Shown: piece after piece, positions 1 through 23,875 of the stretch
Position numbering within the stretch: the first letter of the stretch is position 1
Layout: each line of letters starts with the position of its first letter
Virus record (IMG/VR): IMGVR_UViG_3300038345_000076
Location: 41,851-105,850 of that record
Source: a virus
Lineage: Duplodnaviria; Caudoviricetes
Strand: one strand, 5' to 3'
Length of the DNA stretch: 64,000 nucleotides
Position numbers and translations under genes: made by a program
Notes under the pieces: generated by a model
What the model was told of the DNA's origin: nothing
Seen by the model: the letters and a program-made list of their open reading frames with translations, nothing else
Database searches by the model: none

Positions 1-660
1 CCATTCCGTTTTTGCAAACTCCAATGCTTCTTCATAAGAGGATGCTTCGATGTCGAATGTGCGAGAGTATGAGCCGGACACTCGAATGACAAACTTTTGA
101 TTTGTCTTGCTTTCAACGTAGGCAATTAGTTTGTCAAGGTCATCTGAAAGCAGACTTTCGCATTGGTCACTGTAAGAGCAGTGATGATGATGGTTTTCAA
201 TGCAGAAACAATCATCCTCATCAATATACAATGATTCTACGCCAACAGATAGCGTTTCTCCATTAATAGACAGTCTGGTGGCGAAAGTTCCGTCGAACTT
301 TATTCGTCCACCATTCCGCTTAACGATTTCTCGTAGGTGGGAAAGTTTCTTTTCTCGTACTTCTTTCTGCAAGTGGTCGAGAATGTCAAGGAATGATTCA
401 GGGTCATAGGCAAAAATAGTTTCCCCTTCAATTTTCTCTGTTTCCTGAGCAACGTTATTGACATGGAAGATAACCATTCCATCATTGTCAGTCTCAACGG
501 CTGTGCATTCTTCTGTTGTGGCTGTATCACCTTCAACATAATGAACAAAGAATGTTTTGGTAAAATCGTGTTTGCAACCATAACCAAGAATGTTCCTGAT
601 TTCATTCAGAATATCGTTCTTGACATTCATGATTCTCTCTGCATAATCTTTTCTTTCCAT
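1..660 (-). CDS. Hypothetical phage protein, runs off the window edge; DpnD/PcfM-like C-terminal segment
   Basis: Own translation from ATG at 660 (MERKDYAERIMNVKND...) stays open to base 1 and ends FVIRVSGSYSRTFDIEASSYEEALEFAK; preferred over the 300..605 track ORF. Confidence 0.7.
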   Translation of the reverse strand, partial: MERKDYAERIMNVKNDILNEIRNILGYGCKHDFTKTFFVHYVEGDTATTEECTAVETDNDGMVIFHVNNVAQETEKIEGETIFAYDPESFLDILDHLQKEVREKKLSHLREIVKRNGGRIKFDGTFATRLSINGETLSVGVESLYIDEDDCFCIENHHHHCSYSDQCESLLSDDLDKLIAYVESKTNQKFVIRVSGSYSRTFDIEASSYEEALEFAKTEW

Positions 661-724
661 AATAAACTGAATTTTAAAAGTTAGACAATAGTGAATCGCC
701 CAAGTATTAAGTTGGGCGAAACTC

Positions 725-1156
725 TTAGTCAATGAACATACCAAAATCAATCTTCTTTGCCTTTTGTCCGTTAAGAACTGGCTTGGTGGAAAAGACATAG
801 GTATGCACATTGTCTGTAATGCAGTGACTTCCAAAGATGTGATAGCCCGCTTTCTGAATAGCCTTAAACACGGCTTTCATTTCACATGTTCTGACCTTCA
901 TACTGAAAGGGTATCTCCTCTTGTCAATCTTCTGTGTTACTATACCAGTCATTTTAGTCATTGCAGAAGATTCATAGAATATATGTACTTCTGCACTTTT
1001 GTCTGAATAGTCCCAGATTCTCAGGGTGTAGAAACCTTTTTCCAGACCATTTTTCATCCAATAGATGATGTGGTTGCAGATGTCATGAACAACTTTTGCT
1101 CTCACTTCTTTTGGCTGAACGTAATCGTTAGCCGGAATATTTACCTGTACTTTCAT
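725..1156 (-). CDS. Hypothetical protein (143 aa)
   Basis: ORF with A-rich leader, followed by an intergenic hairpin. Confidence 0.7.
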   Translation of the reverse strand: MKVQVNIPANDYVQPKEVRAKVVHDICNHIIYWMKNGLEKGFYTLRIWDYSDKSAEVHIFYESSAMTKMTGIVTQKIDKRRYPFSMKVRTCEMKAVFKAIQKAGYHIFGSHCITDNVHTYVFSTKPVLNGQKAKKIDFGMFID

Positions 1157-1227
1157 GTGAATTGAATTTTATAAATTAGACAATAGGCAGTAAACACGAT
1201 GCTTGGTCGTGCTTACCGATAGCGAGT

Positions 1228-1482
1228 TTAGCCATAGACGGCATCCCAATCTACCTCAGAAACTTCTTTCTCGGCTGTAATACCCATATCGAGGTTGATG
1301 TGTGGGTCGGTGTCCTGGTCTTCAACATACTGCATACAGAAATCAATGAAGCAACAAGTTCTGGCTTCATTCTCATGGTCATTCTTTGGGAACTTAATAC
1401 CGCGAGCAACGATCTCTTTCTCAAACATTTCGCCAAGCACGGCAATCTCACCGTAAGATGGCTGATACTGATATGTACTCAT
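1228..1482 (-). CDS. Hypothetical protein (84 aa, acidic)
   Basis: ORF fits the leftward gene array. Confidence 0.7.
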   Translation of the reverse strand: MSTYQYQPSYGEIAVLGEMFEKEIVARGIKFPKNDHENEARTCCFIDFCMQYVEDQDTDPHINLDMGITAEKEVSEVDWDAVYG

Positions 1483-1550
1483 AATTTTAAAATTTAGAAT
1501 TTATCGTACTCTCTGCATTTGTCAGGACACAGAGAGAGGTAGATAATAGA

Positions 1551-1802
1551 TTAAATTCTTGACTCCATTGCTTTTTGAAGGATAGTTTTGTTTTCGCTTG
1601 AAAGTGAATCAATATCCAAATCACCTTCAAACTCAAAACATCCGACGTGAATGAAGATTTTATCCTCTTTGTCGGAATACCAAATGCTTTCAACATCTAC
1701 TTCGTTGTCGAAAATGCGGAGTCTTACTTTTAGGTCTATTGCATAGAAATTCTGTTCATTTCTGTGCATAAAGTCCATTGCTGTTTCTTGAATTGTACTC
1801 AT
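1551..1802 (-). CDS. Hypothetical protein (83 aa)
   Basis: Start moved to MSTIQET at 1802, just downstream of the 1823-1858 hairpin. Confidence 0.7.
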   Translation of the reverse strand: MSTIQETAMDFMHRNEQNFYAIDLKVRLRIFDNEVDVESIWYSDKEDKIFIHVGCFEFEGDLDIDSLSSENKTILQKAMESRI

Positions 1803-1867
1803 ATTATATTCTTTTAATGTTAATCGTACTCCAATCTGTTTTTGAGCAGATATGGAGTGAGAGAGTT

Positions 1868-2398
1868 TTAGAATGGCATCTTGTCGCAGGCTTTCTGCAA
1901 CTTTTCCAGATAGGCTTCGTAGTCTTCGTAGTGCTCTTTTATGTTGTCGAATGGTACTCCATTGCCAGGCTGTCCGTTTTGCCACCACGAAAGAACTGTC
2001 TCGTTGATGTCGAAATTGTCAATGTACTCTTGCAAATTCTTTTTCCGTACCTTGTCAAGCGAGATAATCATGTCTTCGCCTGCATCGGTATAGCACTCAA
2101 GTTCTCCGTCGCCATTCGATGTGATGTCGAAGTCTTCAAGATAGAGTTCGTTGATGTAGTCTCTCCACGGTTCTCCATCAATAGTGAGTTTACATAAATC
2201 TCCATCCCATTCTACATCACAGAAATGACTTCCGTTTAAGTCATAGACAGAAACAGTGAATCCGATTGTTCCATAGGAACAGAACAATGGCTGTGTCTCG
2301 ATTTCACGACCGTACCACGAATTTCTTCTTCTGTAATTCTCGTCGTTGAATCTGTCTTCGAGAATCGCCTTGCATAGTCTGATTAAATACTTTTCCAT
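1868..2398 (-). CDS. Hypothetical protein (176 aa, acidic)
   Basis: ORF with A-rich leader. Confidence 0.75.
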   Translation of the reverse strand: MEKYLIRLCKAILEDRFNDENYRRRNSWYGREIETQPLFCSYGTIGFTVSVYDLNGSHFCDVEWDGDLCKLTIDGEPWRDYINELYLEDFDITSNGDGELECYTDAGEDMIISLDKVRKKNLQEYIDNFDINETVLSWWQNGQPGNGVPFDNIKEHYEDYEAYLEKLQKACDKMPF

Positions 2399-2438
2399 AA
2401 TCTATTGAATTTTGTGGTTAGTGCGACTATTGCAGATA

Positions 2439-2642
2439 TTACCCTGCAAATAGTCTTTTGATGTTCGGACGTGAACGCAAACCATCTTTGATAACTCTTG
2501 CGTTTGCTCCATGGCCGTAGTTCCCATACTTACCATACCTCCAGAACCATCGGAAGTGTGGCTTGTCTGCATACTTCTCAACGAAATACTTTTCTCCGTT
2601 GATCTCGTAGTCTTTGGAGTTCTTTACGATAGTCATAATCAT
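2439..2642 (-). CDS. Small hypothetical protein
   Basis: ORF between two hairpins. Confidence 0.6.
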   Translation of the reverse strand: MIMTIVKNSKDYEINGEKYFVEKYADKPHFRWFWRYGKYGNYGHGANARVIKDGLRSRPNIKRLFAG

Positions 2643-2698
2643 TGAATTTTAGGGGTTAGTGTGCCATGCTCAACTGTTAATTCAAACATGACTGAGAG

Positions 2699-2920
2699 TT
2701 AGTAAGTTATCCATTCCGCTTTGTACTTCTTTCCGTTTATAGAAAAGATAACTTTGGTATAAGCACTTCTCACATAGATGTTGTACTCTCTGACAGTTCT
2801 GTCAAGCCAGTCAACCCATCCTCTAAAATGCTCAGTCATTTCTCTACGGTTGTTTCCGAAAAGTTTCTTTTCGTACAAACATTCCTTGTAGTTCGTTTGG
2901 AATTTGTAAAGTGGTAGCAT
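2699..2920 (-). CDS. Small hypothetical protein
   Basis: ORF between two hairpins. Confidence 0.65.
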   Translation of the reverse strand: MLPLYKFQTNYKECLYEKKLFGNNRREMTEHFRGWVDWLDRTVREYNIYVRSAYTKVIFSINGKKYKAEWITY

Positions 2921-2974
2921 AATCTTTGAATTTTTGGTGAATAGTAAAGACTTGGGTTGTTAAGCCAAAATCTT

Positions 2975-3448
2975 TCAAAAGTCTGTCATGTGCAATTCGT
3001 AAGGCATTATGTCACGTTTCACTCTTGCGCCATGGCCGAAGATTAAACTTTCAGACAAAGTGTTTCCGATTTCAATACCTCAGAATAGACGAATGTTTCT
3101 CAGTTGGTCTTTGTCTGCACACAATTCACGTACTTTCAAGCGAACCGCATACACGCAAACTTTGTCGTAAGGATATGCGATTTCACCGAACAGACGTGCA
3201 GAAGAAGGAAACACGCTAAGATAGACGTAACCGATTTTGCTCTGATAACTGTTTCTGCGCTTTCTGCTTGTTCTTAGCAGTCCTTCGCTTGCAATGTCGT
3301 GCCGTGAAGACGTGCCGTGATAAAGTATGATATATTCTTCTCTATATTGGCGCAGGATTTGAGCAAACTGCTTTATTTCTTTTGCCGTGGGAGTGTCGTT
3401 ATATACATACTTTTTTGTTTGCTCATAGTTTCGCAAATCAATCTCCAT
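2975..3448 (-). pseudogene. ADP-ribosyltransferase-fold-like protein interrupted by an in-frame TGA at 3080-3082
   Basis: LYHGTS...GL...VYLS motif; frame continues 34 aa past the TGA (GIEIGNTLSESLIFGHGARVKRD...) to a stop abutting the next hairpin. Confidence 0.55.
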
Positions 3449-3509
3449 AGATAATTTGAATTTATTTGGTTTATTGCAGAACGCGGAGAGGTAAACCTCC
3501 GCACTCCGA

Positions 3510-4052
3510 TTAGTAATTGAAACTCTTGTCTTTCGGAACTTCCGAATAGTGTAACTCTTCGCTCCAGATACGATACTCGAAAGTATCATAGTCGATGCGC
3601 ACAAAGATGGTTTGACTTCTCTTCGGATTCTTGCTCACGTCCCCCATAACGCTATCGCCAAAGACTTTAAGGAACACTTTCTTGTGGTCTTCTCTTGCTC
3701 TCCAAATTTGCAATGCAACATGGTTTCGCATGAGTTTGATTGCATCTTCCAACCTTGCAAAGTGGTGGTGGCCAGTGCTCCAGCCGTGGTCGTTCACTTC
3801 ACATCTGATAAAGTAAACTCTTTGCGGTCTTGCGTCGATGGCATCTTCCAGACCTTCAAGATACTCAATCATCTGTGCGGAAGTTCTGTGCGTGTTTACT
3901 TGACTAAAAGGATAAGGAGGAAATTCCGTTCCGTTGCTTGACGTGTAAAGATACCAAGTTCCGTTCTTTCTTCCGAGCCGCAAATCAGTCTTCGCTTTCT
4001 CGTTGATGCGCTTCACCTGATTGTTGATGATTTCTTTGTTTGTTATAGCCAT
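3510..4052 (-). CDS. Hypothetical protein (180 aa)
   Basis: ORF track, A-rich leader. Confidence 0.7.
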   Translation of the reverse strand: MAITNKEIINNQVKRINEKAKTDLRLGRKNGTWYLYTSSNGTEFPPYPFSQVNTHRTSAQMIEYLEGLEDAIDARPQRVYFIRCEVNDHGWSTGHHHFARLEDAIKLMRNHVALQIWRAREDHKKVFLKVFGDSVMGDVSKNPKRSQTIFVRIDYDTFEYRIWSEELHYSEVPKDKSFNY

Positions 4053-4113
4053 AATTGTAAGAATTAAAAGTTGTGCTCCAGACAGAAACTTTGCTTTCGG
4101 TCTGGAAAGAGAG

Positions 4114-4341
4114 CTATCTACGGAATCGTATAAGCAACTTTGCTTCTTCGTAAACTTCTGGAGTTACGTTGTAGATGTATTGTCCGCAGCGAACAAGTTG
4201 CGCACTTTTCCCGTAAAACTGCTTTTTCATACCTGCAACGCTTCCACTTGCATGAAAATTAGGGAAGTTGCCTAACCCTAACTTACTTGCAAACTCCTTC
4301 CGTACCCTCAATAACGGGTAAGTTTTGCCTGAATCTGTCAT
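4114..4341 (-). CDS. Small hypothetical protein
   Basis: ORF between hairpins. Confidence 0.65.
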   Translation of the reverse strand: MTDSGKTYPLLRVRKEFASKLGLGNFPNFHASGSVAGMKKQFYGKSAQLVRCGQYIYNVTPEVYEEAKLLIRFRR

Positions 4342-4395
4342 AACTGAAAAGTATTGGTTAATGTACTTCGCAGGGGTGTTGCGCCCTGCAAAGTT

Positions 4396-4839
4396 TTAGG
4401 CCGTGAACTTCTTCTCGTACTCAAGAATCTCTTCCCAAGAAATCCATTCGGGCTTCAGGTCGTCAGGAATCTTGTTCCAATGCTCTTTCATACTCTCAAT
4501 CATTTCTTTTGCAGTCTGCCAGTGCGCATTGTTGTAATGACTTGCAGATTCGTAATACTTGCAATCCATCTGCATACGTGAAAGCATCATGTAATCAAAC
4601 TTAAACGCTCTCTCACGCTCTTCACGTTCAGAACGTGGATTTGCGATTACGATTTTACACTCAATCATTTTGTCTGGCTCGCCCTCGGAATCTGTTGCGG
4701 GGGAAAGACGATAAACGACTGAAATTTCGTTGTTCTTTGGCTCATCATGGCAATCCACATAATAATATCCTTTGGAATCTTGATAAAGATTTCCGTCCAT
4801 TCTGTGTTCGCCAACTCTTGTAAGTTCTAAAGTCTTCAT
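4396..4839 (-). CDS. LPD11-like (large polyvalent protein-associated domain) protein
   Basis: C-terminal FDYMMLSRMQMDCKYY...MKEHWNKIPDDLKPEWISWEEILEYEK matches the LPD11 pattern as I recall it. Confidence 0.65.
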   Translation of the reverse strand: MKTLELTRVGEHRMDGNLYQDSKGYYYVDCHDEPKNNEISVVYRLSPATDSEGEPDKMIECKIVIANPRSEREERERAFKFDYMMLSRMQMDCKYYESASHYNNAHWQTAKEMIESMKEHWNKIPDDLKPEWISWEEILEYEKKFTA

Positions 4840-4900
4840 AATCGTAAATATTTTAATGAGTTTTATCGTACTTTTGGGCGGTTGTAGGTCGCCCGAAAGT

Positions 4901-5392
4901 TTAGAGATTTAGCATCTTGTCAAGCCAAGTCGATTCGTCGATGATGTCGGCCATAGCATAGTAGTATTTGCCACTGGCTTTGTCGTAGAGATATTGACCG
5001 TAGAAAGTCATTGTCGTACACTCTCCGATAAAGAACATTGAATAACGCTCGTTACGAATCCACCTCTTAGGCGGCAAAACATTCAGAGCATAGTCGTATT
5101 CTTCCTGAGTTATCTCCTTTGGCTCTTTGCTCAACCACTTATCACGCTGGAGTTTGCAATACTCTTCCCATGTAACGGCACGGAAGCCGGATTGGAGAAT
5201 CTTTGTAACTTTTTCAAGTTGAAACTGCCAGTGGTCTGACATGTTAGGATAGTTTACGAGGTGGCTTTCATACAAAGCCTTGTCTTTCTCATAAAACTCC
5301 TTTGCACGTTCGATGTTGGTACTAACTTCAGATTCCTTGCAAGTGGTGAAGCAATCAAAATACGCATTGTTGATAATCAATAAATCTTCCAT
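4901..5392 (-). CDS. DUF1419-like protein
   Basis: EITQEEYDYALNVLPP...F..GE motif; start moved to MEDLLII. Confidence 0.55.
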   Translation of the reverse strand: MEDLLIINNAYFDCFTTCKESEVSTNIERAKEFYEKDKALYESHLVNYPNMSDHWQFQLEKVTKILQSGFRAVTWEEYCKLQRDKWLSKEPKEITQEEYDYALNVLPPKRWIRNERYSMFFIGECTTMTFYGQYLYDKASGKYYYAMADIIDESTWLDKMLNL

Positions 5393-5451
5393 AATAGTTT
5401 GAATTTTAGTGATACATTGCAGTCGTGGGAGTTTTGAGGCTCCCATGACTT

Positions 5452-5928
5452 TTAGAGTTCGATCTTGATGTCATTCCACTCTTCCGGCAAAGTTCTAATC
5501 TGCTGCAGAATGTAGTCAACAATCTTGCGGTCGTAGATGTAGAAATGCCAAGCGTAAGAACACTCTCTCAGATTCCCGATAAAGACCCAGCAATTCGTTT
5601 CTTCAGCCCAATAAAGATTTACGCCGATATGACGGTCAGGCGTGTAGCCGTTCTTTCTAATGAAGTCGAATCGCTCTGCAATAGTGCAACCAGGCTGATA
5701 AGATGAAGGAATGTTGCAGTCAACGTACTTGTAGCCAGTCTTTCGGAAATACATCAATCTAACCGCCATTTCGTGACGCGAAAGTACTTCGTATTTCTTT
5801 GCGCATTTGTCGATGCGATGGAAATACGATTTCACTCCATTAACAACCACAAAGTAATCTGTGTAGTTTCTGTCTTCACAATTCCAACGTGAAAACTGCT
5901 TGTAATCGTTCTTGATAATCTGTACCAT
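5452..5928 (-). CDS. Hypothetical protein (158 aa)
   Basis: ORF track. Confidence 0.7.
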   Translation of the reverse strand: MVQIIKNDYKQFSRWNCEDRNYTDYFVVVNGVKSYFHRIDKCAKKYEVLSRHEMAVRLMYFRKTGYKYVDCNIPSSYQPGCTIAERFDFIRKNGYTPDRHIGVNLYWAEETNCWVFIGNLRECSYAWHFYIYDRKIVDYILQQIRTLPEEWNDIKIEL

Positions 5929-5991
5929 GATAATTGAATTTTTGTTAATTATAGTTTTGTCAGTCAGAGAGTTTTCAGGCTCTCTGAGAGT

Positions 5992-6228
5992 TTAGGCAAC
6001 CTTGCGAAATACTTCTTTCAAACCTTGTTTGGTGTACTTCAAGACCTTAACAACATTCAGCCCTAAATCTTTCCAAGTCGGAAACTCTTCGAGTGCTGCT
6101 GCAACCGCTTCTTTGTTGTTCTTGAAAATTGCAGGACTGCTAACAGATGGCGCATCGTCTTCCGTGCAATACTCTACACGATAGTTTGGATAATGCTTGC
6201 CGTCATAGTCAAAATTGAATTTGTTCAT
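5992..6228 (-). CDS. Small hypothetical protein
   Basis: Start moved to MNKFNF after the A-rich leader. Confidence 0.65.
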   Translation of the reverse strand: MNKFNFDYDGKHYPNYRVEYCTEDDAPSVSSPAIFKNNKEAVAAALEEFPTWKDLGLNVVKVLKYTKQGLKEVFRKVA

Positions 6229-6308
6229 AATCTTTTGAATTTTGGTAAAAATAGTAGGTGCTTCCATCAATCAAAATGGCCGCACCCGAACACACTAAAA
6301 TTAGCAAA

Positions 6309-6479
6309 CTATGAATGTTGTGCCGTTCCAAACCATTTGCGACTGAAATCGTCGGAATCTTTGCAGTTGAAAACTATTCCGATACACTTACGATTCTGTT
6401 TCGCAAACTCTTCACGTTTCTTTAGAAACTCTTGCTCGGTTATTGGCTCGTATGGAGCCATCACATAGTAGTTAACCAT
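6309..6479 (-). CDS. Small hypothetical protein (56 aa)
   Basis: Own translation MVNYYVMAPYEPITEQEF...; ATG follows the 6496-6531 hairpin unit. Confidence 0.55.
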   Translation of the reverse strand: MVNYYVMAPYEPITEQEFLKKREEFAKQNRKCIGIVFNCKDSDDFSRKWFGTAQHS

Positions 6480-6533
6480 AATCTTTTGATTTAATTTCGT
6501 ACTTTGGGGAGTTGCAACGCTCCCCGAAAGTGT

Positions 6534-7193
6534 TCAGGCACACATTCTTTCGATGTTCTCACGTTTCTTGGAAACTTTGAAGCGGTACACCCAACGATGG
6601 TCGGAAAACTCATTGTAGTATTCTATTCCGCGCTCATCCATCAAACTCTTTACGTCGGCAATATTCTCTTCTGCATGGAAGTTGTAGAAGACCCAAACAC
6701 CGATACCGTAAGTGGTGGGATAGACCAAGAACCGATTGTTATAGCCGCGTTCCTTGCAAAGTCTTTGCATAGCCATCGCAAACTTTCCGTATGTTCCGGC
6801 ATAGACCTTGCGATCCTTCTCAACAAGTTTCTGGACGTACTCGACCGTGATGACTTTCGACTTGACGTTTTCTTTCTTGACAAGCATCTGACCGCCATCG
6901 TGCTCAACGTATAAAGTATCGTACTCGTAAGGTGATGCGTGACGTTCCCACGTCTGGTCTGCAAACTTTCGGCACTTTTCTTCAAACTCTTCCATCGACT
7001 CATAAAGTACGTTTGTTCTGCCTTCTTCAGTGGCTTTACTTCCTCGCACATTGTCTTTGTTGTAGTTGTAGGAAAAGTCGTACATTTCCTGCCAGACTCT
7101 TTTCTTGAACTCTTCGTAAGTTTCCTCTGGAAACCAACGTACATTGATACCCTGAACCTTCAGTGCATCAATAGTTTCTTTACTGATTCTCAT
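6534..7193 (-). CDS. Hypothetical protein (219 aa)
   Basis: ORF track. Confidence 0.75.
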   Translation of the reverse strand: MRISKETIDALKVQGINVRWFPEETYEEFKKRVWQEMYDFSYNYNKDNVRGSKATEEGRTNVLYESMEEFEEKCRKFADQTWERHASPYEYDTLYVEHDGGQMLVKKENVKSKVITVEYVQKLVEKDRKVYAGTYGKFAMAMQRLCKERGYNNRFLVYPTTYGIGVWVFYNFHAEENIADVKSLMDERGIEYYNEFSDHRWVYRFKVSKKRENIERMCA

Positions 7194-7252
7194 AATTGCT
7201 GAATTTTAAATGATTAGTCGTACTTTCGTGGAGTGTCACCTCCACAAAAGTC

Positions 7253-7930
7253 TTAGGCTGCATCCTCGTAGATGCCGTTGAACTCTGTGCCATCCTCATA
7301 ATAGAGTTTGTCAGGCCAGTTTGCGGAAATCATATCTCCAATAGATTCGTCTGACATTCTGTAATCATCTTCATCTGACCAAAGTCTCAGATAGTGATGG
7401 AAACAATCATCAAATAAATCGTGTAGAGATATGTTCCAATCGGGACTTTTGTACCATTCAAAGATTTTGTCTAAGATGTCGCAATCGTAGCACATTCCAG
7501 TAAACGGACAATCCTGCTCAACCCACCAGATATGAGAATAACGCTTGACGTGTTCCAGTCCGACAGGATGCTCTGAATCTTTTGCGTGAGGAACAAGTTT
7601 GCCGTAATACTTGCGGCTGCGAATGTCGTAGTAATACTTGTTGAGGAATCTCCAGAGATACTTTCCGCAAAGTTCCTCAGAGTTTGCGTCAAGTTCTGAA
7701 TCCTCAAAGTGCCAGGTGATGAAACGATACTGATGGTCATAGTCAATTTCATAGCGTATGCCAAAGACTTCGCAAAACTTATCCAGAGTGGCGCGTCTTT
7801 CATCTGCGTCTGTTTCTTGACAAATGTACCAATAGCCGTAAGTTTCTTCACGGTCACGTTCACAAACTTCGTGTTTCGCATCTTTCGACAACTCGTCAAA
7901 ATGATACAACTTTACAGTTACTTCTTTCAT
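7253..7930 (-). CDS. Conserved phage hypothetical protein (Y.FDELS..AK N-terminus)
   Basis: N-terminal LYHFDELSKDAK and C-terminal DYRMSDESI...YEDG pattern common in phage early proteins. Confidence 0.7.
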   Translation of the reverse strand: MKEVTVKLYHFDELSKDAKHEVCERDREETYGYWYICQETDADERRATLDKFCEVFGIRYEIDYDHQYRFITWHFEDSELDANSEELCGKYLWRFLNKYYYDIRSRKYYGKLVPHAKDSEHPVGLEHVKRYSHIWWVEQDCPFTGMCYDCDILDKIFEWYKSPDWNISLHDLFDDCFHHYLRLWSDEDDYRMSDESIGDMISANWPDKLYYEDGTEFNGIYEDAA

Positions 7931-7998
7931 AGTCTCATAATTTTAATGTGAATAATATCGTACTCTCCACGATTGCAACATCATGGAAAGTATTTTGA

Positions 7999-8133
7999 TC
8001 AGCACTTGTAAAGTGAGGGCTTGACGAATCTTATTCCGTCTTTCCAAAGTTCTGTACCTTTGCACTTTGCGCAAATCTCAGCAAACTTGCCGACAAATGG
8101 AAATCCCATCGGCTTGACAATTCTTCTTCTCAT
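7999..8133 (-). CDS. Small ORF (44 aa)
   Basis: MRRRIVKPMGFPF... exactly fills the space between two hairpin units. Confidence 0.5.
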   Translation of the reverse strand: MRRRIVKPMGFPFVGKFAEICAKCKGTELWKDGIRFVKPSLYKC

Positions 8134-8199
8134 AATTGATATACTTTTTATTGGTTAGTCGTACTTCCGACCATTGCAACAAGATCGAAAGCAAAAGTT

Positions 8200-8340
8200 T
8201 CAGAAACATAATCCAAGATTTTTCTGACAGATGAAAAACTTCTCAGCAGTAGCAAGCATCTTTTTTGTACCATAACCTTTCAGGTACAAAGTGTAAATCC
8301 GCTCAATCTGTGCGGAAATATCGCAAAAAGACTTTTTCAT
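8200..8340 (-). CDS. Small ORF (46 aa)
   Basis: MKKSFCDISAQIERIY... between two hairpin units. Confidence 0.5.
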   Translation of the reverse strand: MKKSFCDISAQIERIYTLYLKGYGTKKMLATAEKFFICQKNLGLCF

Positions 8341-8405
8341 AAAAACTCCTTTCCTTAAAGATTTTATCGTACTGCCAACAAACGCAACTTTGTCGGCAGT
8401 AGGTT

Positions 8406-8501
8406 TTAGATCTCAAAGTTTTCATAAACAAACTTTGCAGCGGCATTGAAATCGTTGCCGAAATTCTTAATCTCTCCGTTTGGTAATTCTACGTAATACA
8501 T
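8406..8501 (-). CDS. Small ORF (31 aa)
   Basis: MYYVELPNGEIKNFGNDF... between two hairpin units. Confidence 0.5.
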   Translation of the reverse strand: MYYVELPNGEIKNFGNDFNAAAKFVYENFEI

Positions 8502-8662
8502 AATTGAAACTTTTTTTGGTAAAACATTATCGTACTTTCAACAGTTCTAACACTATTGAAAGTAATAGCCCTCACGGGTTTCATAAAACACAATAACTAA
8601 AAACCTAAAACTAATATCGTACTGCCAAGAACTTTCACGTACTCAGCAGCCTGGTCGTACTC

Positions 8663-8872
8663 TCAAATCTCGTACTTTGTCACCTGAATGTTTATCTTCC
8701 AGAACTCCAGCCAGAACTTTCTGATTCTCGTACTGAACTTTGGAGAGTTCCAGACTAACACGGCATAAGCAATCGCAAAAGTTACATAAAGCAGACTATT
8801 GCAGCATAATGCCATGACGATGGGCGCAAGTATCAAAGTACCTGCAACGTAGATAAAAATTTTCTTTGCCAT
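8663..8872 (-). CDS. Small membrane protein
   Basis: Two hydrophobic segments. Confidence 0.65.
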   Translation of the reverse strand: MAKKIFIYVAGTLILAPIVMALCCNSLLYVTFAIAYAVLVWNSPKFSTRIRKFWLEFWKINIQVTKYEI

Positions 8873-8912
8873 AACTTGATTGAATTTTAGAAATAGAATA
8901 CCAAACTATTAG

Positions 8913-9380
8913 TCAGATAGTTTGGTATGCGAAAGACTTTGCAGCTTTGAAGTCAAAACCGAAACTCAACAAAGTTTCCTTTGATATGCGCAAGTCCTTC
9001 ATCTTCTCTTTCAGGCGCATAAACCAGTTGTCGCGTCTTTCGAGAAAAGAAAGTTTCTGTGATTCATCTTTGAATCCGTGAGAGAGTTCATCTTTCAGAT
9101 CCTCAAAGTCGAAACGCGCAAACTTGCAAACTCTTTCGACCATTGGAATAGAAAGCAAAGTATCAAGCGCAACTTTGTTGCCATATTCAGTCAACTTGTT
9201 ACGCGCATCATTGGCAAAGATCGGCTGAGAAACTTTTCTCGTACTCTGACTTTGCCAGTAGTTTTGTTCCTTCATCTTCAGGAAATTCCAAAACTCTGTG
9301 TAGGGAATCTTCTGATCGATGGCTTCACGCTCCCAATCTTCTAAGATTGAGGAGGAAATAAAAGTCTTTTCTTGTTTCAT
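8913..9380 (-). CDS. Hypothetical protein (155 aa)
   Basis: Start moved to MKQEKTF. Confidence 0.65.
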   Translation of the reverse strand: MKQEKTFISSSILEDWEREAIDQKIPYTEFWNFLKMKEQNYWQSQSTRKVSQPIFANDARNKLTEYGNKVALDTLLSIPMVERVCKFARFDFEDLKDELSHGFKDESQKLSFLERRDNWFMRLKEKMKDLRISKETLLSFGFDFKAAKSFAYQTI

Positions 9381-9944
9381 CTTTTTCTGTAAAATTGTAG
9401 GCAGCACAAAGTCTTTCATTTGCACTGCCTGGATTATGGCCTGATAGTGACAAACTTTTGAGCCTGCAATGCCATACCTACTATATTGCCAAAGTAAACT
9501 TTGACCAGGGCTCGTCACCACTGCGTTTGGAGATTGCAGAAAGTTTTTCACCACCAGACCGAACTAATGATAAAATTCAATTATGGACTTTTTCTAATAT
9601 CGGCACATATAGTTTGCGGCTTCCATTTCACACGCAAAAACAACTTTATAAGACTGAATAATGCACTCAAACCTTTTGTTCCCAAACTTTGAAATGCAAT
9701 ACTTTCAGCCCGAAAGTTATTCCGATCTAAATAAGTCTGTCAAGTAAGAACCGCCACAAAGAAACTTTGCAGCATGGGAAATGATTCTCACAAGACAAAG
9801 AACAAATAAAAGATGCAACCAGATAGAAAGTATTTCATTTCGTTTCCGGCTGCAAAAATTAGTGGCTCTCAAGTTACTCAAAAACTTTTGTACGTCAAAT
9901 AATCGTATTAGCCAAACTTTTGCGACACCAAAAATAAAAGCATG

Positions 9945-9982
9945 AAAAAAGGGCTACAGACTTTTTGCGGTCTGTAGCCCTT
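9945..9982 (-). terminator. Intrinsic terminator
   Basis: AAGGGCTACAGAC/GTCTGTAGCCCTT stem followed by a U-tract on the minus strand, after the 9996..10781 gene. Confidence 0.75.
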
Positions 9983-9995
9983 CTAACTTTGAGAG

Positions 9996-10781
9996 TTAAG
10001 AGAAAACTCTTTCCAAAATTGCGCTTATTTGCTCTTTCGAAAAATTGTTTTCCTTTGCTTTAGCAATCGACGTTTCAACATTGACCAAGATACGGCGGTA
10101 ATCTGCAATTTGATTGCTCAACTTCTTTTGTGCTTCCTGCTTACTTGAATAGTAACGAATTGCCAATAAAATATTGGCTGTTGTTATATCTCTATATTCA
10201 ACAAACAGATTGACAGTGAAAGATACACCGTTTTCTTCAGCCCTCAAGGTGCAATCTGTATAACGGTTGTTGCCGTCTTTGTCTTGACATTGGTTGCCTC
10301 TGAAAATTGCAACCTTGCCGCCTTCGATATAGTTTGACTCTTTCAACTCTAAAACCTTGCAAGCGGTTAAGACCTTATTATATAAAGTCTTGTTTTCCTG
10401 CAACTTCTCCAGAACTTCAGCAAATGTAAGATTATTGGCAGCGTCGATCTCGTCGGTGTGTGCTTCAAGATACTTCTTCTTTGCGTCTGCAATCGTAACC
10501 GCTTTAGTCTCTTCTGTCATAATTCCAGATTCAACTAAAGGAGTTAACGCCTTCTGTAGTTCAGAGTCGTCAAACTTAATAGGACAAAAATAGTCTGCAA
10601 TCTCAATAGAAAAAAGTTGATTTTTGTCGATTTTCTCAATAGCCTCCTCCGCTTTTGCAGATTCAACTAAATTAAAATTGCCACTAACTTTGCCCTTTGT
10701 CTGTGTGGCGTCCTTTACTTCAACTTCTGGAAGGTTGTTACTATTATTCACAACGTTTTCCTTCTTTGTCTTTTTACTCAT
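9996..10781 (-). CDS. Hypothetical protein (261 aa), first gene of the leftward early arm
   Basis: Long ORF directly downstream of a consensus promoter. Confidence 0.8.
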   Translation of the reverse strand: MSKKTKKENVVNNSNNLPEVEVKDATQTKGKVSGNFNLVESAKAEEAIEKIDKNQLFSIEIADYFCPIKFDDSELQKALTPLVESGIMTEETKAVTIADAKKKYLEAHTDEIDAANNLTFAEVLEKLQENKTLYNKVLTACKVLELKESNYIEGGKVAIFRGNQCQDKDGNNRYTDCTLRAEENGVSFTVNLFVEYRDITTANILLAIRYYSSKQEAQKKLSNQIADYRRILVNVETSIAKAKENNFSKEQISAILERVFS

Positions 10782-10865
10782 AATTGCTAATATTTAAGGG
10801 TGTTACAAAATGTCAATTTTTACCGCTTTTTTTGCGGTGGTTACTCTCTCGTAACCTTTCACCTG

Positions 10866-10897
10866 CAAAGATACATTATAATACTTAATAATACAAA
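10866..10897 (-). promoter_or_regulatory. Bacteroidetes sigmaA-type promoter
   Basis: TTTG-N20-TATCTTTG on the minus strand. Confidence 0.75.
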
Positions 10898-11710
10898 AAA
10901 TAATACTTTAAATTACGTTTATAATGTGACTTTTTCCGAAATATTTACAAAATTAAAATTGAAGGTATTATTTTGCAATCTCTACTTTGCAAAATAAAGC
11001 TTTTTTGTCGGATCTGACTTCATGAAATGATATATATTATATAAAAAAATCTATTGTTTAGGCTGTTCTTCTCAATACCTATATATATATTAAGTATGAT
11101 TATTATTTGCGCTTAATTTGCGCTTTATGGTTGTTATAATATAATAAAGTGGTATTATTTACCTTTGCATCTATTTGCAACCAGATACGACATAATACGA
11201 CGTAATACATGATATTATATATATAGAGAGAGAAAAAAAAAGAAATGTATTTATATTGTTTGTTTGTTTGTTTGTGATTTATTTTATTTTGTGATGCAAT
11301 TTTGTTAAGAAAAAAAGACTTTAGTACGATATTTATAAGTATTTGATTTTCAAGCGGTTAGAGATGTTACATTATAGTTATAATGTGACTTTTTTTGTGT
11401 TGTTTTTTGTCGTTTTTTTAGACGGGTACCCCCCTTTTAACAACTTTGGGGAGCCCTACTGACCTCTCGCCGAGATTTTTTATTTTTATTTTTTAAAATT
11501 TTCGTTTTGATTTTCAAATTTTTGTGAATTTAGTGTAGGTTATTGGAAATCCTACACGGAAAAATGCAGAAATCGTTCATTGTCTGAAAGCCTTATAAAT
11601 AAAGGGTTTATTTTTGCACAATGTAGGTTGTGAACGATAAATAGCACTCCTATATAGGTTTTTTGTAATTTAATAAAAGGGTGATAATAATATATATATA
11701 ATCGTACATT

Positions 11711-21124: not shown

Positions 21125-23875
21125 TTAATCCCTATGCCTTGGTGTAAGTTTCCTTACAGTTCTGATACGGCTTCTTCCGTTATTTCCTTTTTTAAGCCAT
21201 TTTGGTATTACGGCTTGCGTATGTTTAATATCGAAAATCTCCCTCATAAACAAAGCCTCGAAGAAGTCAGGTGAGTGTCCGACAACCGCTTTGTTCTTCA
21301 TCTGTTCCTTATGAATGAGACACCAGCCCTTGTCTTCCTTAGACATATCCTGCTTGACGCATTTTCTTTCGAGTTGCAGAATGTCGTAGAGCGTTTTCGT
21401 TTCTTTGCCAATCTTGTATTTGCGTTTGAGAAGACTTGGCTCAATGCTCCAATCTCCTTGCTGTGTCCGTTCTGCAAACTTATATGCGCATTGAGATTTC
21501 TTATTGTCGTAAAGTCCTTTGTCTTTTTCTGCAACGGCTTCCTGGTTATTGAATGGTACGGCTCTTGGGAAAGCCCCCTTCAAAACTTGCCCCATGCCGT
21601 TCAAGTCATAGGCGAAGTTCTGTTCCAAAACTCCCCATTCCTGAAGTTTCGCCCTTAATAGTCCGACGGTTGTATATGGGTCACGTCGGCAGACATAGAC
21701 ATCGGCAACATGGTTTCCAATCCAGAGCCATGTCACGCAGTTGTCGCCACCTGTTCCGGCAACGTCGCAGGTTGCACGGCGAACACCGTCGCCAATCATC
21801 TGTGCGTTCTGGAAGATTTTGTCAAGATGATAGGCTTGAATTATATCATCTCCCATCTTTATGATGTCCCAGTTTCCGTCAAACTCTCTGGCTCTTACTT
21901 CTGGCGGCTGGTTAAGAAGATTGGCTATATATCCTGGGTCTTTCTTTATCAGTTCCTTGTTCTCGTTCAAAGCTGCTTTCTTGAACGTGACAGACTTGAC
22001 AAAGAAAGAAGTTTTTGTGTAACCATACTGTTCCCATTCGGGATCCCATGCGTCATCAATCAGTTCACGGCATTGCTCATAAACTTCTTCTGGCGTATCT
22101 CCCCAAATGATATTGTCAACAGAATCGTCCGGCATATAGCAATAGCGAACAACGCCGTCACGCTCTGGAATCGGGAAACCTTTTCTCTCAGGGTGCATCA
22201 GTCCGTCGGAGTAGATGGTATCTTCTTTCCCGATCCACCAGTCAACAAACTTTCTGAGCCATGACAGCGGATCTGGGTTACAAGTTCCGAACATACGCGA
22301 ATGAACACCGATAGTATTACGGCAGGAAGTCATGAGGAATTTGAACATTTCAAACGGAATCTGAGGTAACTCGTCAATGCCGATAGAGCAAAACTGCTGA
22401 CCACGATACTTTGTTTCAAAGTCTGAAAACGGCATATCATAGATAGTAAGTCCGAGTTTTGCACCCGTCTTGAAGTTCCATGTCATATCGTCCTTCGACT
22501 TGTTATAGCGTCCAAGTTTTGCAAACCATCTTTTCGACTCGTTGATGATGTTTTCAAAGTCATCTTTGTTTTTACGGAAAATGATACCGTTAAAGTGTTT
22601 ATTTTGGATGTCGTACAAAGGCTCCATCAACATTGTTGTTGTGTTGTGGTTGATGGTGTAGGCATCCGTCATGTAGAGGTGGTCACGCCCCGTCACTGTA
22701 ATGCAACGGCAGTTCTGTCGATGTTTTGACTTTGTGATGTACTGAAGAGTTTTTGTAAGCACATTCTTCTCGTTCGGTTTCTTCGGAGTATTCGCGTTGA
22801 CGTGTGCGCGAAGTTTGAAGTTTGTTCTTGCAAACAAGTCAGCATCGTTGGGAGCGACAAAAGCAACTTTCCAATATCCGATGCGCTCTGGATCATCCTC
22901 AATCTGTGAAACTCTCGCCCAAATTCCCAAAGAGCGTGCTACCTCTGCAACATCTTCTATCAGCTCTTTGTTTGGCAAAGCAAGATATGGATGCTTGTGC
23001 ATAGAACGTCCATTCTGAAACATGACACCTCTGAGATATTCCCATCGTGCCTGTACTGAGGCAGTCTTATATTCTGAAGGTATTCTTGCGGGTTGTTTTT
23101 GTCTGCTGCAAGTTATTTTCCTCCTGTTTTCGTCATCCAGGCCCTTGAGATAGTAGAATCCGTCATTCCTGTTTTTCTTTATCTTATAGCCTATAGCCGA
23201 GAACTTTCTTGCCAGATGTTGGTCTTTAGACAGTTTCACTCCAGTCATTGAGAAGTTCCAGAATCCAGAACCGCTGATATATCCAAGTACAAAAGGATGA
23301 ATAGGCAGGTCAACGGATGTGATTTTCTCGTTCAGATCAACTTCCCCGCATAGCGGAAACTCAACAAAATTCGTCTTTCCGCGGCGGAGTGAAAGCGGAT
23401 AAGGTCTGTCAAGTGCATATATTCCCATGATATCCCTGGCTGTCATTACGTGAAAGTCTTCTGTTGGAGAAGTCCTTGCCCAGAACCTGTGATTATCCAT
23501 GCACCTGACTTCCGTCCCGTCATCAAAATGGAACACATAGATGGTATTAACACCCTGCTCAAAAATGCCGCTTACTTTCTGCACACCATTGTATGGAGTG
23601 CAAATAAGGTCATCTATTTCAAGGTCGCCCATCAGTCTGAACCCAGATGGAGTAGCTACAGGTGTCGTGTACGGGTTTGCCTTAGCACCACCTCTGTTAC
23701 CACCAAATATCGTAATGTCTGCATCATTGCTGAGACCGATTTCCTGCGCCCCTTTCTGGGCGATAAAAAACTTTGACTTTTTCTTGCTGTTTTCTTTTTC
23801 TCTCAGTTCATCAACAAAAGCCTGGGAATATATAGGTTTCCCGTCTATCGTGTATAGTCCTGTAAAACCTTCCAT
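21125..23875 (-). CDS. terL: Terminase large subunit with intein
   Basis: Walker A GGNRGGAK|T split by the intein, Walker B IGIDE, TCNP, nuclease DVAGTGGD and HSPDFFEAL. Confidence 0.9.
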   Translation of the reverse strand: MEGFTGLYTIDGKPIYSQAFVDELREKENSKKKSKFFIAQKGAQEIGLSNDADITIFGGNRGGAKANPYTTPVATPSGFRLMGDLEIDDLICTPYNGVQKVSGIFEQGVNTIYVFHFDDGTEVRCMDNHRFWARTSPTEDFHVMTARDIMGIYALDRPYPLSLRRGKTNFVEFPLCGEVDLNEKITSVDLPIHPFVLGYISGSGFWNFSMTGVKLSKDQHLARKFSAIGYKIKKNRNDGFYYLKGLDDENRRKITCSRQKQPARIPSEYKTASVQARWEYLRGVMFQNGRSMHKHPYLALPNKELIEDVAEVARSLGIWARVSQIEDDPERIGYWKVAFVAPNDADLFARTNFKLRAHVNANTPKKPNEKNVLTKTLQYITKSKHRQNCRCITVTGRDHLYMTDAYTINHNTTTMLMEPLYDIQNKHFNGIIFRKNKDDFENIINESKRWFAKLGRYNKSKDDMTWNFKTGAKLGLTIYDMPFSDFETKYRGQQFCSIGIDELPQIPFEMFKFLMTSCRNTIGVHSRMFGTCNPDPLSWLRKFVDWWIGKEDTIYSDGLMHPERKGFPIPERDGVVRYCYMPDDSVDNIIWGDTPEEVYEQCRELIDDAWDPEWEQYGYTKTSFFVKSVTFKKAALNENKELIKKDPGYIANLLNQPPEVRAREFDGNWDIIKMGDDIIQAYHLDKIFQNAQMIGDGVRRATCDVAGTGGDNCVTWLWIGNHVADVYVCRRDPYTTVGLLRAKLQEWGVLEQNFAYDLNGMGQVLKGAFPRAVPFNNQEAVAEKDKGLYDNKKSQCAYKFAERTQQGDWSIEPSLLKRKYKIGKETKTLYDILQLERKCVKQDMSKEDKGWCLIHKEQMKNKAVVGHSPDFFEALFMREIFDIKHTQAVIPKWLKKGNNGRSRIRTVRKLTPRHRD
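22643..23680 (-). mobile_element. Intein (346 aa) with degenerate LAGLIDADG-like endonuclease region, in the TerL Walker A
   Basis: Starts ANPYTTPVATPSG (Ala1), block B CMDNH, block F RCITV, ends HN followed by T+1. Confidence 0.85.

Follow-up and report, generated by a model that had tools for sequence, protein, structure and literature searches.

The junctions between the genes of a tailed-phage array carry a recurrent element in which a 12-bp hairpin is joined, in fixed register, to the word AGUACGA. The element was analysed in a stretch of 64,000 nt (the window, to which positions refer), comprising bases 41851–105850 of the 105,850-bp IMG/VR record IMGVR_UViG_3300038345_000076, which is rated complete. 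Some 35 small minus-strand genes, all in the same orientation, make up the array, which starts at about position 9419, spans 17 kb and continues past the left edge of the window for about 6.3 kb, beyond the sites listed in an earlier prediction made from the letters of the window (the original prediction). The elements share one structure and one geometry between stop and start codon, they fold and covary on the mRNA strand, they are restricted to phages and linked to the gene at the head of the array, and the arrays that hold them are mosaic. We propose, at a probability of roughly 0.4, that the element may be an RNA-level intercistronic punctuation mark, composed of a 3′ hairpin and a word that a phage factor would read, and that it may double as a recombination linker. 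Four of the observations go beyond the original prediction, namely the separability of hairpin and word, the cluster of words at the head of the array, the enrichment of the word in coding sequence and the conserved head gene.

Structure and folding of the junction element

Read on the mRNA strand, a junction passes from the stop codon of one gene through a spacer, mostly of 0–13 nt, into the 12-bp hairpin, the word AGUACGA, a leader poor in G and rich in A and U, and finally the AUG of the next gene. The outer pairs of the stem are conserved, A(C/U)U being paired with the AGU of the word, which forms the last three pairs; the 5′ arm is rich in pyrimidines and the 3′ arm in purines. Among the 94 copies collected from this phage and 13 relatives AGUACGA is near-invariant, the terminases of the carrier phages being 55–92% identical. 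Loops, earlier described as GUUGCA-like, fit that description loosely; the actual rule is a length of 6 nt (74 of 94 copies) and the pattern xYNRxx, with a pyrimidine at position 2 in 66 of these 74 loops and a purine at position 4 in 73. The placement after a stop codon and ahead of an AUG is confirmed, since the next AUG lies 21–39 nt past ACGA in about 80 of the 94 copies. The leader is A/U-rich and nearly free of G for some 15 nt past ACGA, and then presents a UUCAC/UAACC-type box, at a distance from the word that varies between 4 and 10 nt, and AAAAUUCAA-like sequence before the AUG. A U-tract is missing, the 3′ flank being ACGA followed by mixed A, U and C, so the elements are indeed not canonical intrinsic terminators; canonical terminators with tracts of U6–7 do exist elsewhere in the phage, where they close operons.

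All 11 sites listed in the original prediction are present, its coordinates being one base low. The pattern TCGTACT-N22–27-AGY has 10 matches in the window against 0.83 expected, a number reached in none of 100 shuffles, and nine matches on the plus strand fall between 1824 and 8650; the looser sites at 1504 and 4362 (an AGUACAU variant) were found with a covariance model, at 32.3 and 20.2 bits. The fixed size of the hairpins also stands: folded singly on the minus (mRNA) strand, all 11 form near-perfect stems of 10–12 bp within 30–31 nt, with energies of −12.1 to −18.2 kcal/mol and z-scores of −2.8 to −6.0 relative to dinucleotide shuffles.

The claim that stem sequences differ while pairing is kept is borne out by two sets of copies, both of which show compensatory change. 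The first comprises 16 ungapped copies, taken from this phage and a single relative; 95.3% of their stem cells are paired, compared with 67% in shuffles and 35–44% when the partner arm is slid, and both sides have changed at 9 of the 12 pairs. In the 94-copy set 95.5% of stem positions are paired and 11 of the 12 pairs show compensatory change. Pairing is somewhat overstated here, because the model served to fit the alignment, but the unfitted 16-copy set shows the same pattern. Covariation was counted in both cases over paralogous and related copies, which are not independent events. An Infernal-type covariance model (R1), a check that the original prediction had proposed, was built from the 16 ungapped copies; it recovers five window copies left out of training as well as a degenerate one (match 4356–4398), and its top match is junction element 5 at 50 bits. 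The search of Rfam, proposed along with it, gave no match: none of the 4227 families, including tRNA-like skipping-rope, DUF2693-FD and salivarius-1, reached its gathering score anywhere in the window, and at E ≤ 10 none matched at the hairpins within positions 1–11000.

The strand on which the hairpins form can be read from their mismatches. As predicted, C.A mismatches on the plus strand correspond to G.U wobbles in the mRNA: a strand-neutral scan of the left block gave 21 A.C against 4 G.T on the plus strand, and over the 94 copies G.U outnumbers A.C on the sense strand by 135 to 24. Since G.U far exceeds A.C, it is the sense strand that is under selection to fold.

Hairpin and word are separable. 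Hairpins do occupy almost all gaps of the array, in line with the idea that they punctuate nearly every gene, but only 11–12 of about 27 gaps carry an AGUACGA foot. When every gap was folded, the hairpins ranged from −7.5 to −19.3 kcal/mol and were mostly at −11 or stronger; the nine in the window that have no foot range from −7.5 (2946–2975, the weakest) to −17.1 kcal/mol, and gaps left of the window reach −19.3. Behind each footless hairpin come a (C)ACUAACC or UUCACC box and a AAAAUUCAA leader, and more such hairpins lie left of the window. A scan of the whole genome found 44 long hairpins, against 11–17 in shuffles, about half of them in the 15% of the genome that holds the array.

The word in turn occurs without a hairpin. 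Directly before the first hairpin element lies a tandem cluster of 2–7 bare AGTACGA(W)AATT words that recur every 15–20 nt or so, found at the same place, after the head gene and a small hydrophobic open reading frame (ORF), in 9 of the 14 loci of relatives. In the window the cluster (8655–8734) overlaps the 3′ end of a 69-aa ORF, and that of locus L001 (5248–5336) is non-coding. In the array genes of the window and of loci L001 and L085–L097, AGTACGA is moreover present 68 times in the coding sequence, on the sense strand only, where synonymous-codon shuffling predicts 18.5 ± 4.0 (an excess of about 3.7-fold). Every frame shows a raised count; that of frame 1 is solid, and some of the words in frames 0 and 2 belong to ORFs mis-called over junctions, genes here being simple ORF calls. 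Two neighbouring genes of L090 hold 11 copies, and the non-array genes of the phage show no enrichment (7 against 6.6). An apparent antisense enrichment in genes of the opposite strand was rejected as an artefact of shadow ORFs over junctions.

Phage restriction, exchange of genes and the head of the array

The element is conserved in relatives, as anticipated: R1 detects it in 14 of 18 long related virus records, with nearly all matches of a record on one strand and within 10–20 kb, and one weak match on the opposite strand (record G005). No element was found in the whole genome of Bacteroides phage LoVEphage, in two complete but distant relatives or in the distant loci L002 and L003, and a search for related loci by means of the 225-aa array protein found none. 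In four host genomes of 2.5–4.5 Mb every R1 match lies inside a prophage, and in three of them AGTACGAWWA occurs at control frequency in the rest of the chromosome. Among the cultured bacteria with a prophage of this clade are Prevotella sp. P2-180 and Prevotella sp. oral taxon 376 F0043. A host-wide motif of the Chi, KOPS, DUS (uptake word) or REP type was ruled out on the same evidence, prophage-only R1 matches and a word at chance level in the chromosome. Because the element is restricted to phages, the phage probably encodes its reader; otherwise the reader would be a host factor that has hardly any targets in the host. The AGTACGA word was not found in the searchable literature.

Host-type promoters are likewise missing from the junctions. 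On the strand of the array, the Bacteroidota consensus TTTG...TAnnTTTG is confined to two places, near 10873 and about 7.5 kb left of the window start, the latter within a 181-aa ORF past the far end of the array, and at no junction; the lack of a host-type promoter within the array argues for a single long transcript.

The arrays are mosaic, most genes being common to only 0–4 of the 14 relatives, and blocks of DNA homology cover one gene together with parts of the flanking junctions. Gains and losses of genes break at junctions, as had been expected, in comparisons with L091, L086 and L001: a 67-aa gene (2439–2642) is missing in L091, with the breakpoint between hairpin and AUG; L086 is without two genes, the break again lying between the 3′ end of a hairpin and the AUG; and two genes at 4901–5928 are inserted relative to L001. 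These indel junctions fall where the leaders are nearly identical, which is what plain homologous exchange would give. The suggestion of a structure-recognised cassette boundary is weakened, since the one indel examined base by base breaks somewhere between the 3′ end of the hairpin and the AUG and not inside the hairpin; nor do the hairpins have the hallmarks of the attC-type site with which they had been compared.

Orthologous genes keep an orthologous hairpin behind them, in which the loop and outer pairs are retained and the inner pairs covary. As this hairpin is kept behind the orthologue while the upstream junction changes with the neighbouring gene, it belongs to the gene upstream of it. 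The hairpins orthologous to junction element 9 in L001 and L086 thus retain the loop and covary in the stem, and those behind the 176-aa gene (element 10) covary in four relatives. The word can decay while the hairpin persists: behind the 176-aa gene the foot has become AGUUCGA, AGUACCA or GGUACAA in three of the four relatives. Junction element 6 has a near-identical copy in L086, though the protein upstream there is only 32% identical.

A scan of the array genes with PHROG and Pfam recognised only LPD11, DUF1419, zf-FLZ, a weak lipocalin, FtsK/SpoIIIE and phage integrase. Of the view that these are early anti-defence genes there remain hints, the LPD11 and DUF1419 domains here and ArdA in the array of a relative, and nothing beyond these. 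The ArdA anti-restriction homologue is encoded at L090:6341–7270 (minus strand; Pfam E = 9e-13). At the far end of the array stands a gene for an FtsK/SpoIIIE-type ATPase with alpha and motor domains (L004:6591–7787, minus strand; genome 36590–37786), in which no gamma domain was detected. It is followed, left of the window, by a gene for a 279-aa Xer-like tyrosine recombinase (L004:5593–6429, minus strand; genome 35592–36428). The FtsK-like gene has a hairpin–AGUACGA element ahead of it in four phages, and a second tyrosine recombinase is encoded at 48483–49712.

Over the 18 related records, the gene that heads the array co-occurs perfectly with the elements: it is present in all 14 records that hold them, always 300–800 nt 5′ of the first one; it is absent from both complete or near-complete relatives without elements, and one further record stops just past it. 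Because these records are kin, the association is suggestive and not proof. It makes the head protein, as judged from this distribution, the best candidate for the factor that would read or control the AGUACGA elements. The protein has 228 homologues, none of them named and none with a Pfam domain, and it gave no sequence match in Pfam, PHROG or the PDB. Its family is narrow, with 47 clusters among 1.84 billion representatives and no fused domains. The AlphaFold2 model has a mean confidence (pLDDT) of 87.5; Foldseek returned nothing at E ≤ 0.001, and VIA-align gave a best Z of 8.1 with generic helical bundles, inside the noise range for helical models. The ESM Atlas score of 0.77 was uninformative. 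By eye, the C-terminal 25 residues resemble a helix-turn-helix.

How the element may act

The wobble bias, the fixed register between stop and start codons, the G-free leader and the lack of host promoters and U-tracts are best accommodated by punctuation of a single transcript at the level of RNA. Action on RNA, cutting or marking of the transcript and the identity of the reader are inferences. The hairpin would be the 3′ structure of the upstream gene, where it would block 3′ exonucleases and may also pause or attenuate the polymerase. The word, placed where double-stranded RNA gives way to single-stranded, would be recognised by a factor specific to the phage, for which the 154-aa head protein is the likeliest candidate; this factor would cut or otherwise mark the transcript there. 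The hosts of Prevotella and Bacteroides phages initiate translation without Shine-Dalgarno pairing and have unusual promoters; in such a host each small gene would become a unit with its own stability and its own translation. The conserved junction, about 65 nt long, would incidentally supply the homology through which relatives swap genes.

Several points weigh against this proposal. The head protein has no recognisable RNA-binding or nuclease fold, and its linkage to the elements could reflect shared ancestry in one clade. More than half of the junction hairpins are without the word, which also occurs free of hairpins and inside genes (68 copies against 18.5 ± 4). Binding or marking fits better than cutting, because a cutter would destroy the messages that contain intragenic words. 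The strand asymmetry fits equally well with folding of DNA in the same sense, on the lagging-strand template, if replication runs with transcription. Finally, a short invariant word 20–40 nt before starts also looks like a phage-specific promoter. A bolder formulation, which we hold to be doubtful, is that the element is the recognition signal of a new phage-encoded RNA or transcription system specific for both sequence and structure, in which the head protein would be the reader, loading at the word cluster and acting at every gene boundary, and at intragenic words, of a 17-kb accessory or anti-defence operon.

Alternatively, each junction may be a true analogue of the PeSL cassettes discussed below and combine a terminator or attenuator, which would end the upstream transcript, with a phage-specific one-block promoter (AGTACGA plus WWAWT). 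Host polymerase would be redirected to it by a phage factor, for example the head protein in the manner of T4 gp55 or MotA, each gene being a transcription unit of its own. An invariant word of 7–12 nt, strictly oriented, restricted to phages, placed 21–39 nt ahead of AUGs and present with or without the hairpin would be in keeping with a promoter. The head gene precedes all copies, so that only its own upstream region would need a host promoter, and the tandem cluster could be a strong entry point; Foldseek also lists ECF sigma factors among its weak matches to the head protein, at a probability of at most 0.13. Such sigma-fold matches are at noise level, however, and no gene for sigma region 2, NusG or a polymerase was recognisable. 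The stem always uses the AGU of the word, which is not required of a promoter, the spacing between word and box is variable, the intragenic enrichment would be unexpected, and tandem promoters 16 nt apart would be odd. We regard this explanation, the main rival, as unlikely, though far from negligible.

Less probable, though to be taken seriously as a third explanation, is a pause stabilised by the hairpin, or a loading site for a processivity factor, at each gene boundary, which would re-couple ribosomes or render the polymerase resistant to termination over the 17-kb operon. In Bacteroides, opsX pause elements consisting of a hairpin and a word recruit factors near start codons, so that elements of this type are established in the genus (PMC11685472). 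In the array, too, the word stands directly 3′ of the hairpin, words are spread along the operon and clustered at its head, and a strong terminator lies between the leftward host-type promoter and the array. Against this, a NusG-like gene is missing from the phage, the word does not resemble the opsX and ops sequences, known systems have one site per operon and not about 25, and the G-free leader is without the usual Y−1/G+1 pause signature. The search for NusG-NGN, sigma region 2 and RNA polymerase genes recognised none in the phage; a weak region-4-like helix-turn-helix occurs in a 79-aa ORF far from the array.

There is a small chance that the element is a recombination site acting as DNA, whose single-stranded fold would be cut at its foot by a recombinase or HUH nuclease, as at attC, nic or the ends of IS200/IS605, with the genes as cassettes. 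In favour of such a site, the small genes have no promoters of their own and share one orientation, and behind each stands an imperfect inverted repeat in which the foot is conserved and the stem varies. The hairpin moves with the upstream gene, as attC does; the direct repeats of the word at the array head are reminiscent of the accessory repeats in attI; the arrays are mosaic; and an Xer-like recombinase and an FtsK-like ATPase close the array. Against it, the hairpins are near-perfect and 30 nt long, with no extrahelical bases, central bulge or AAC/GTT boxes, no gene for an IntI-type integrase adjoins the array head, and the word is missing from many junction hairpins. The closely examined indel breaks between hairpin and AUG, where plain homology exists, and stop/start coupling and the G-free leader point to gene expression.

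In the 'tRNA punctuation' model of mitochondria, polycistronic RNA is cut at gene boundaries. A mimic of the top half of a tRNA, a minihelix with a 12-bp stem that would stand for the acceptor and T stems together, a loop of the U-turn type and a 3′ ACGA tail, might in the same way be cut at each boundary by host RNase Z or RNase P; we give this a slighter chance still. The stem is fixed at 12 bp, loop positions 2–4 are Y-N-R as in a U-turn, and the single-stranded ACGA is one base from ACCA. But the loops, with 6 nt instead of 7, do not show the UUCRA pattern and seldom have C at position 3, ARAGORN predicts no tRNA, and no tRNA-like family of Rfam was found even at E ≤ 10. Host enzymes that read shape would need no invariant GUACGA, and the bare words would be left unexplained.

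It is quite improbable that the word is a polar double-stranded DNA signal, analogous to KOPS, SRS or clt/TRS, that would orient or load the FtsK/SpoIIIE-type motor of the phage, the hairpins being unrelated RNA structures. Its strong strand bias and over-representation, in all coding frames, and the position of the cluster at one end of the array, opposite the FtsK-like and Xer-like genes, of which the former has an element ahead of it in four phages, might suggest as much. The enrichment is limited to the 17-kb array and not genome-wide, however; the gamma domain of FtsK was not detected, the fusion of the word to the hairpin foot would go unexplained, and some coding words in frames 0 and 2 reflect mis-called ORFs over junctions. 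Ordinary intrinsic terminators or generic stabilising hairpins, with the word as a family resemblance left by duplication of junctions, are scarcely credible: hairpins do follow nearly every gene, with or without the word, and junctions have clearly spread by recombination, but U-tracts are missing, the word is invariant where the adjoining stems turn over fully, down to 55% terminase identity, and it is also selected away from hairpins. A hairpin promoter of the N4 type, whose hairpins have 5–7 bp, was disfavoured as well, since here the template strand would bear A.C mismatches and the stems have 12 bp.

Surroundings of the array and comparison with known systems

The features of the window that belong to the array and its surroundings are collected in the table.

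Features of the array and its flank in the window (energies and z-scores from folding on the mRNA strand; R1 scores in bits)
Feature	Position	Strand	Details
Junction element 1, looser	8617..8650	-	GCU...AGU foot then ACGA; −13.4 kcal/mol, z −3.2; R1 40.1 bits
Junction element 2	8530..8563	-	12 bp, loop GUUAGA, foot AGUACGA; −14.5 kcal/mol, z −5.5; R1 48.2 bits
Junction element 3	8367..8400	-	12 bp, loop GUUGCG, foot AGUACGA; −17.8 kcal/mol, z −6.0; R1 47.3 bits
Junction element 4	8159..8192	-	Foot AGUACGA; −12.1 kcal/mol, z −3.0; R1 39.4 bits
Junction element 5, upstream of 225-aa gene	7958..7991	-	12 bp, two G.U, loop GUUGCA, foot AGUACGA; −16.6 kcal/mol, z −5.6
Junction element 6	7218..7251	-	12 bp, loop GUGACA, foot AGUACGA; −18.2 kcal/mol, z −5.5
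Junction element 7	6497..6531	-	5+6 bp, bulged C, foot AGUACGA; −14.6 kcal/mol, z −3.5; untrained, R1 26 bits
Junction element 8	4866..4900	-	One C.A mismatch, foot AGUACGA; −12.6 kcal/mol, z −4.1; untrained, R1 25.2 bits
Junction element 9	4362..4394	-	11 bp, degenerate foot AGUACAU; −17.5 kcal/mol, z −4.7; R1 20.2 bits
Junction element 10, downstream of 176-aa gene	1824..1858	-	Foot AGUACGA; −12.7 kcal/mol, z −5.1
Junction element 11, looser	1504..1536	-	10 bp, CUC...GAG foot then UACGA; −12.2 kcal/mol, z −2.8; untrained, R1 32.3 bits
Hairpins without AGUACGA foot	~5964-5987, 5421-5450, 4076-4107, 3477-3508, 2946-2975, 2663-2692, 2425-2455, 1188-1218, 696-719	-	Found by gap folding
Three bare AGUACGA words without hairpin	8655..8734 (plus-strand TCGTACT 8728-8734, 8670-8676, 8655-8661)	-	Cluster at the head of the array
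Second array gene, 69-aa hydrophobic ORF	8663..8872	-	From translation; tblastn relatives in L001, L092 and L096
Head gene of the array (P1 family)	8913..9380 (protein 8916-9380)	-	154/155-aa all-helical protein; alternative start at 9419 gives 168 aa
Non-coding region upstream of the head gene	9420..9995 (576 nt)	-	8 spaced AAAGUU(U) copies, several inside the 9-bp palindrome CAAAnTTTG
Canonical intrinsic terminator after 261-aa gene	9947..9984	-	15-bp stem then UUUUUU; contrast to the junction hairpins
Consensus host-type promoter facing left	10842..10873	-	TTTG-N-TAnnTTTG; regex scan, both strands, whole genome

Genes for a large terminase, a portal protein, a major head protein, a 2239-aa tape-measure protein and a tyrosine integrase are present in the window, and from this set the phage is a temperate one of the siphovirus type. 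Its hosts are Prevotella-type bacteria (Bacteroidales) of rumen or gut. Relatives are known as proviruses and in genomes of Prevotella spp. and of uncultured Bacteroidaceae and Bacteroidales from rumen, gut and mouth. The closest named phage, LoVEphage, is distant, its terminase being 48% identical over half of the protein, and a megablast search of window positions 1–10000 against GenBank phages gave no DNA match. The 916-aa 'terminase' of the window (21125–23875, minus strand) carries about 400 additional residues at its N-terminus, which weakly resemble a DnaC-like or AAA loader (PHROG 50), and its GenBank relatives, including LoVEphage, align with residues 412–890 only.

Reading leftward towards the array, the promoter near 10873 is followed by the 261-aa gene (9996–10781), which it is predicted to drive, by the U-tract terminator and by the 576-nt non-coding stretch. 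This stretch is the probable control or promoter region of the array, as far as its position and sequence allow us to judge; a sequence scan found no exact Bacteroidota consensus promoter in it, and its AAAGUU(U) copies look like operator sites or weak −7-like promoter boxes. The 69-aa ORF that follows the head gene probably encodes a membrane protein. Further to the right, a lone AGTACGAUAUUUAU word, the only good copy of the word outside the array, stands on the plus strand in a divergent control region (11320–11391), about 40 nt ahead of a dif-like inverted repeat (11366–11389) and a 32-aa ORF.

Prevotella and Bacteroides phages are abundant in gut and rumen, and their gene expression is scarcely known. 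The signal described here is compact, conserved and easily mutated, with about 100 copies over the clade, one 7-nt word and one orphan partner gene, and it marks the borders of rapidly evolving accessory genes, among which are anti-restriction genes such as ArdA. If its reader were found, it would represent a new system of RNA processing, termination or promoter recognition for Bacteroidota and an insulator part for their engineering, and the covariance model together with the head gene would be a search key for accessory-gene islands in metagenomic phages. If a dedicated system based on the head protein were to exist, it would be a new way to organise polycistronic expression in bacteria that do not rely on initiation led by a Shine-Dalgarno sequence.

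Among known systems, the RNase III sites of T7 have a coaxial helix of at least about 20 bp that contains an internal loop, and the host enzyme that cuts them reads no sequence word. In T7, as here, hairpins lie between genes of one long transcript, in that case early genes, and cutting leaves a protective 3′ hairpin. The analogy drawn in the original prediction is nevertheless a poor fit, since stems of 10–12 bp, generally 12, are short for an RNase III substrate, and the element has an invariant word and is restricted to phages. The nut sites of lambda, of which a genome has one or two, lie ahead of terminators and consist of boxA and a 5-bp boxB whose pentaloop is GNRA-like, whereas here stems have 12 bp, loops are of the 6-nt xYNRxx type, the word follows the hairpin on its 3′ side and the sites number at least 12. 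The 94-copy consensus matches a tRNA minihelix in its 12-bp stem but not in the 7-nt T-loop or the NCCA tail.

The attC sites of integrons measure 57–141 bp, have R and L boxes (AAC/GTT), extrahelical bases and a central bulge, and fold from the bottom strand, IntI being encoded beside attI. They share with the junctions an arrangement of co-oriented promoterless small genes, an inverted repeat with conserved feet and a variable stem, and a site that belongs to the upstream gene. The present elements differ in their length of 30–31 nt, in feet that are ACU/AGU and not AAC/GTT, and in a head gene without a recombinase domain. The opsX/UpxY system occurs in the same phylum and likewise presents a hairpin and then a specific word near a start codon, opsX serving to load a dedicated factor. 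It is nonetheless found once per operon, with a YGCGNAGCR non-template hairpin and a NusG paralogue as reader (PMC11685472), whereas the array has about 12–25 copies per operon and another word, and no NGN domain was found in the phage.

The closest parallel is offered by the promoter-early stem-loop (PeSL) cassettes of the T4-type phages RB49 and phi1, intergenic modules that extend from stop to start and contain a stem-loop and a strong early promoter (PMC2839356; extended in PMC4122927). By analogy, the element would act most like these cassettes, yet it is not a member of that group. In both cases composite stop-to-start modules, with a stem-loop that contains G.U pairs, separate small orphan genes of a hyperplastic region, and relatives differ by insertion, deletion or replacement of genes at the modules. 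PeSL cassettes, however, have a strong host sigma-70 promoter and a Shine-Dalgarno sequence, whereas the junctions described here have neither a Bacteroidota promoter consensus nor a Shine-Dalgarno sequence. The position of the PeSL stem-loop also varies relative to the promoter; here the stem-loop is fused to the invariant 7-nt word, always in the same register. A loop rule, a tandem word cluster, intragenic words and a dedicated head gene are found only in the present system, which extends the idea of the regulatory cassette as a recombination linker from T4-type phages to an unrelated group of phages.

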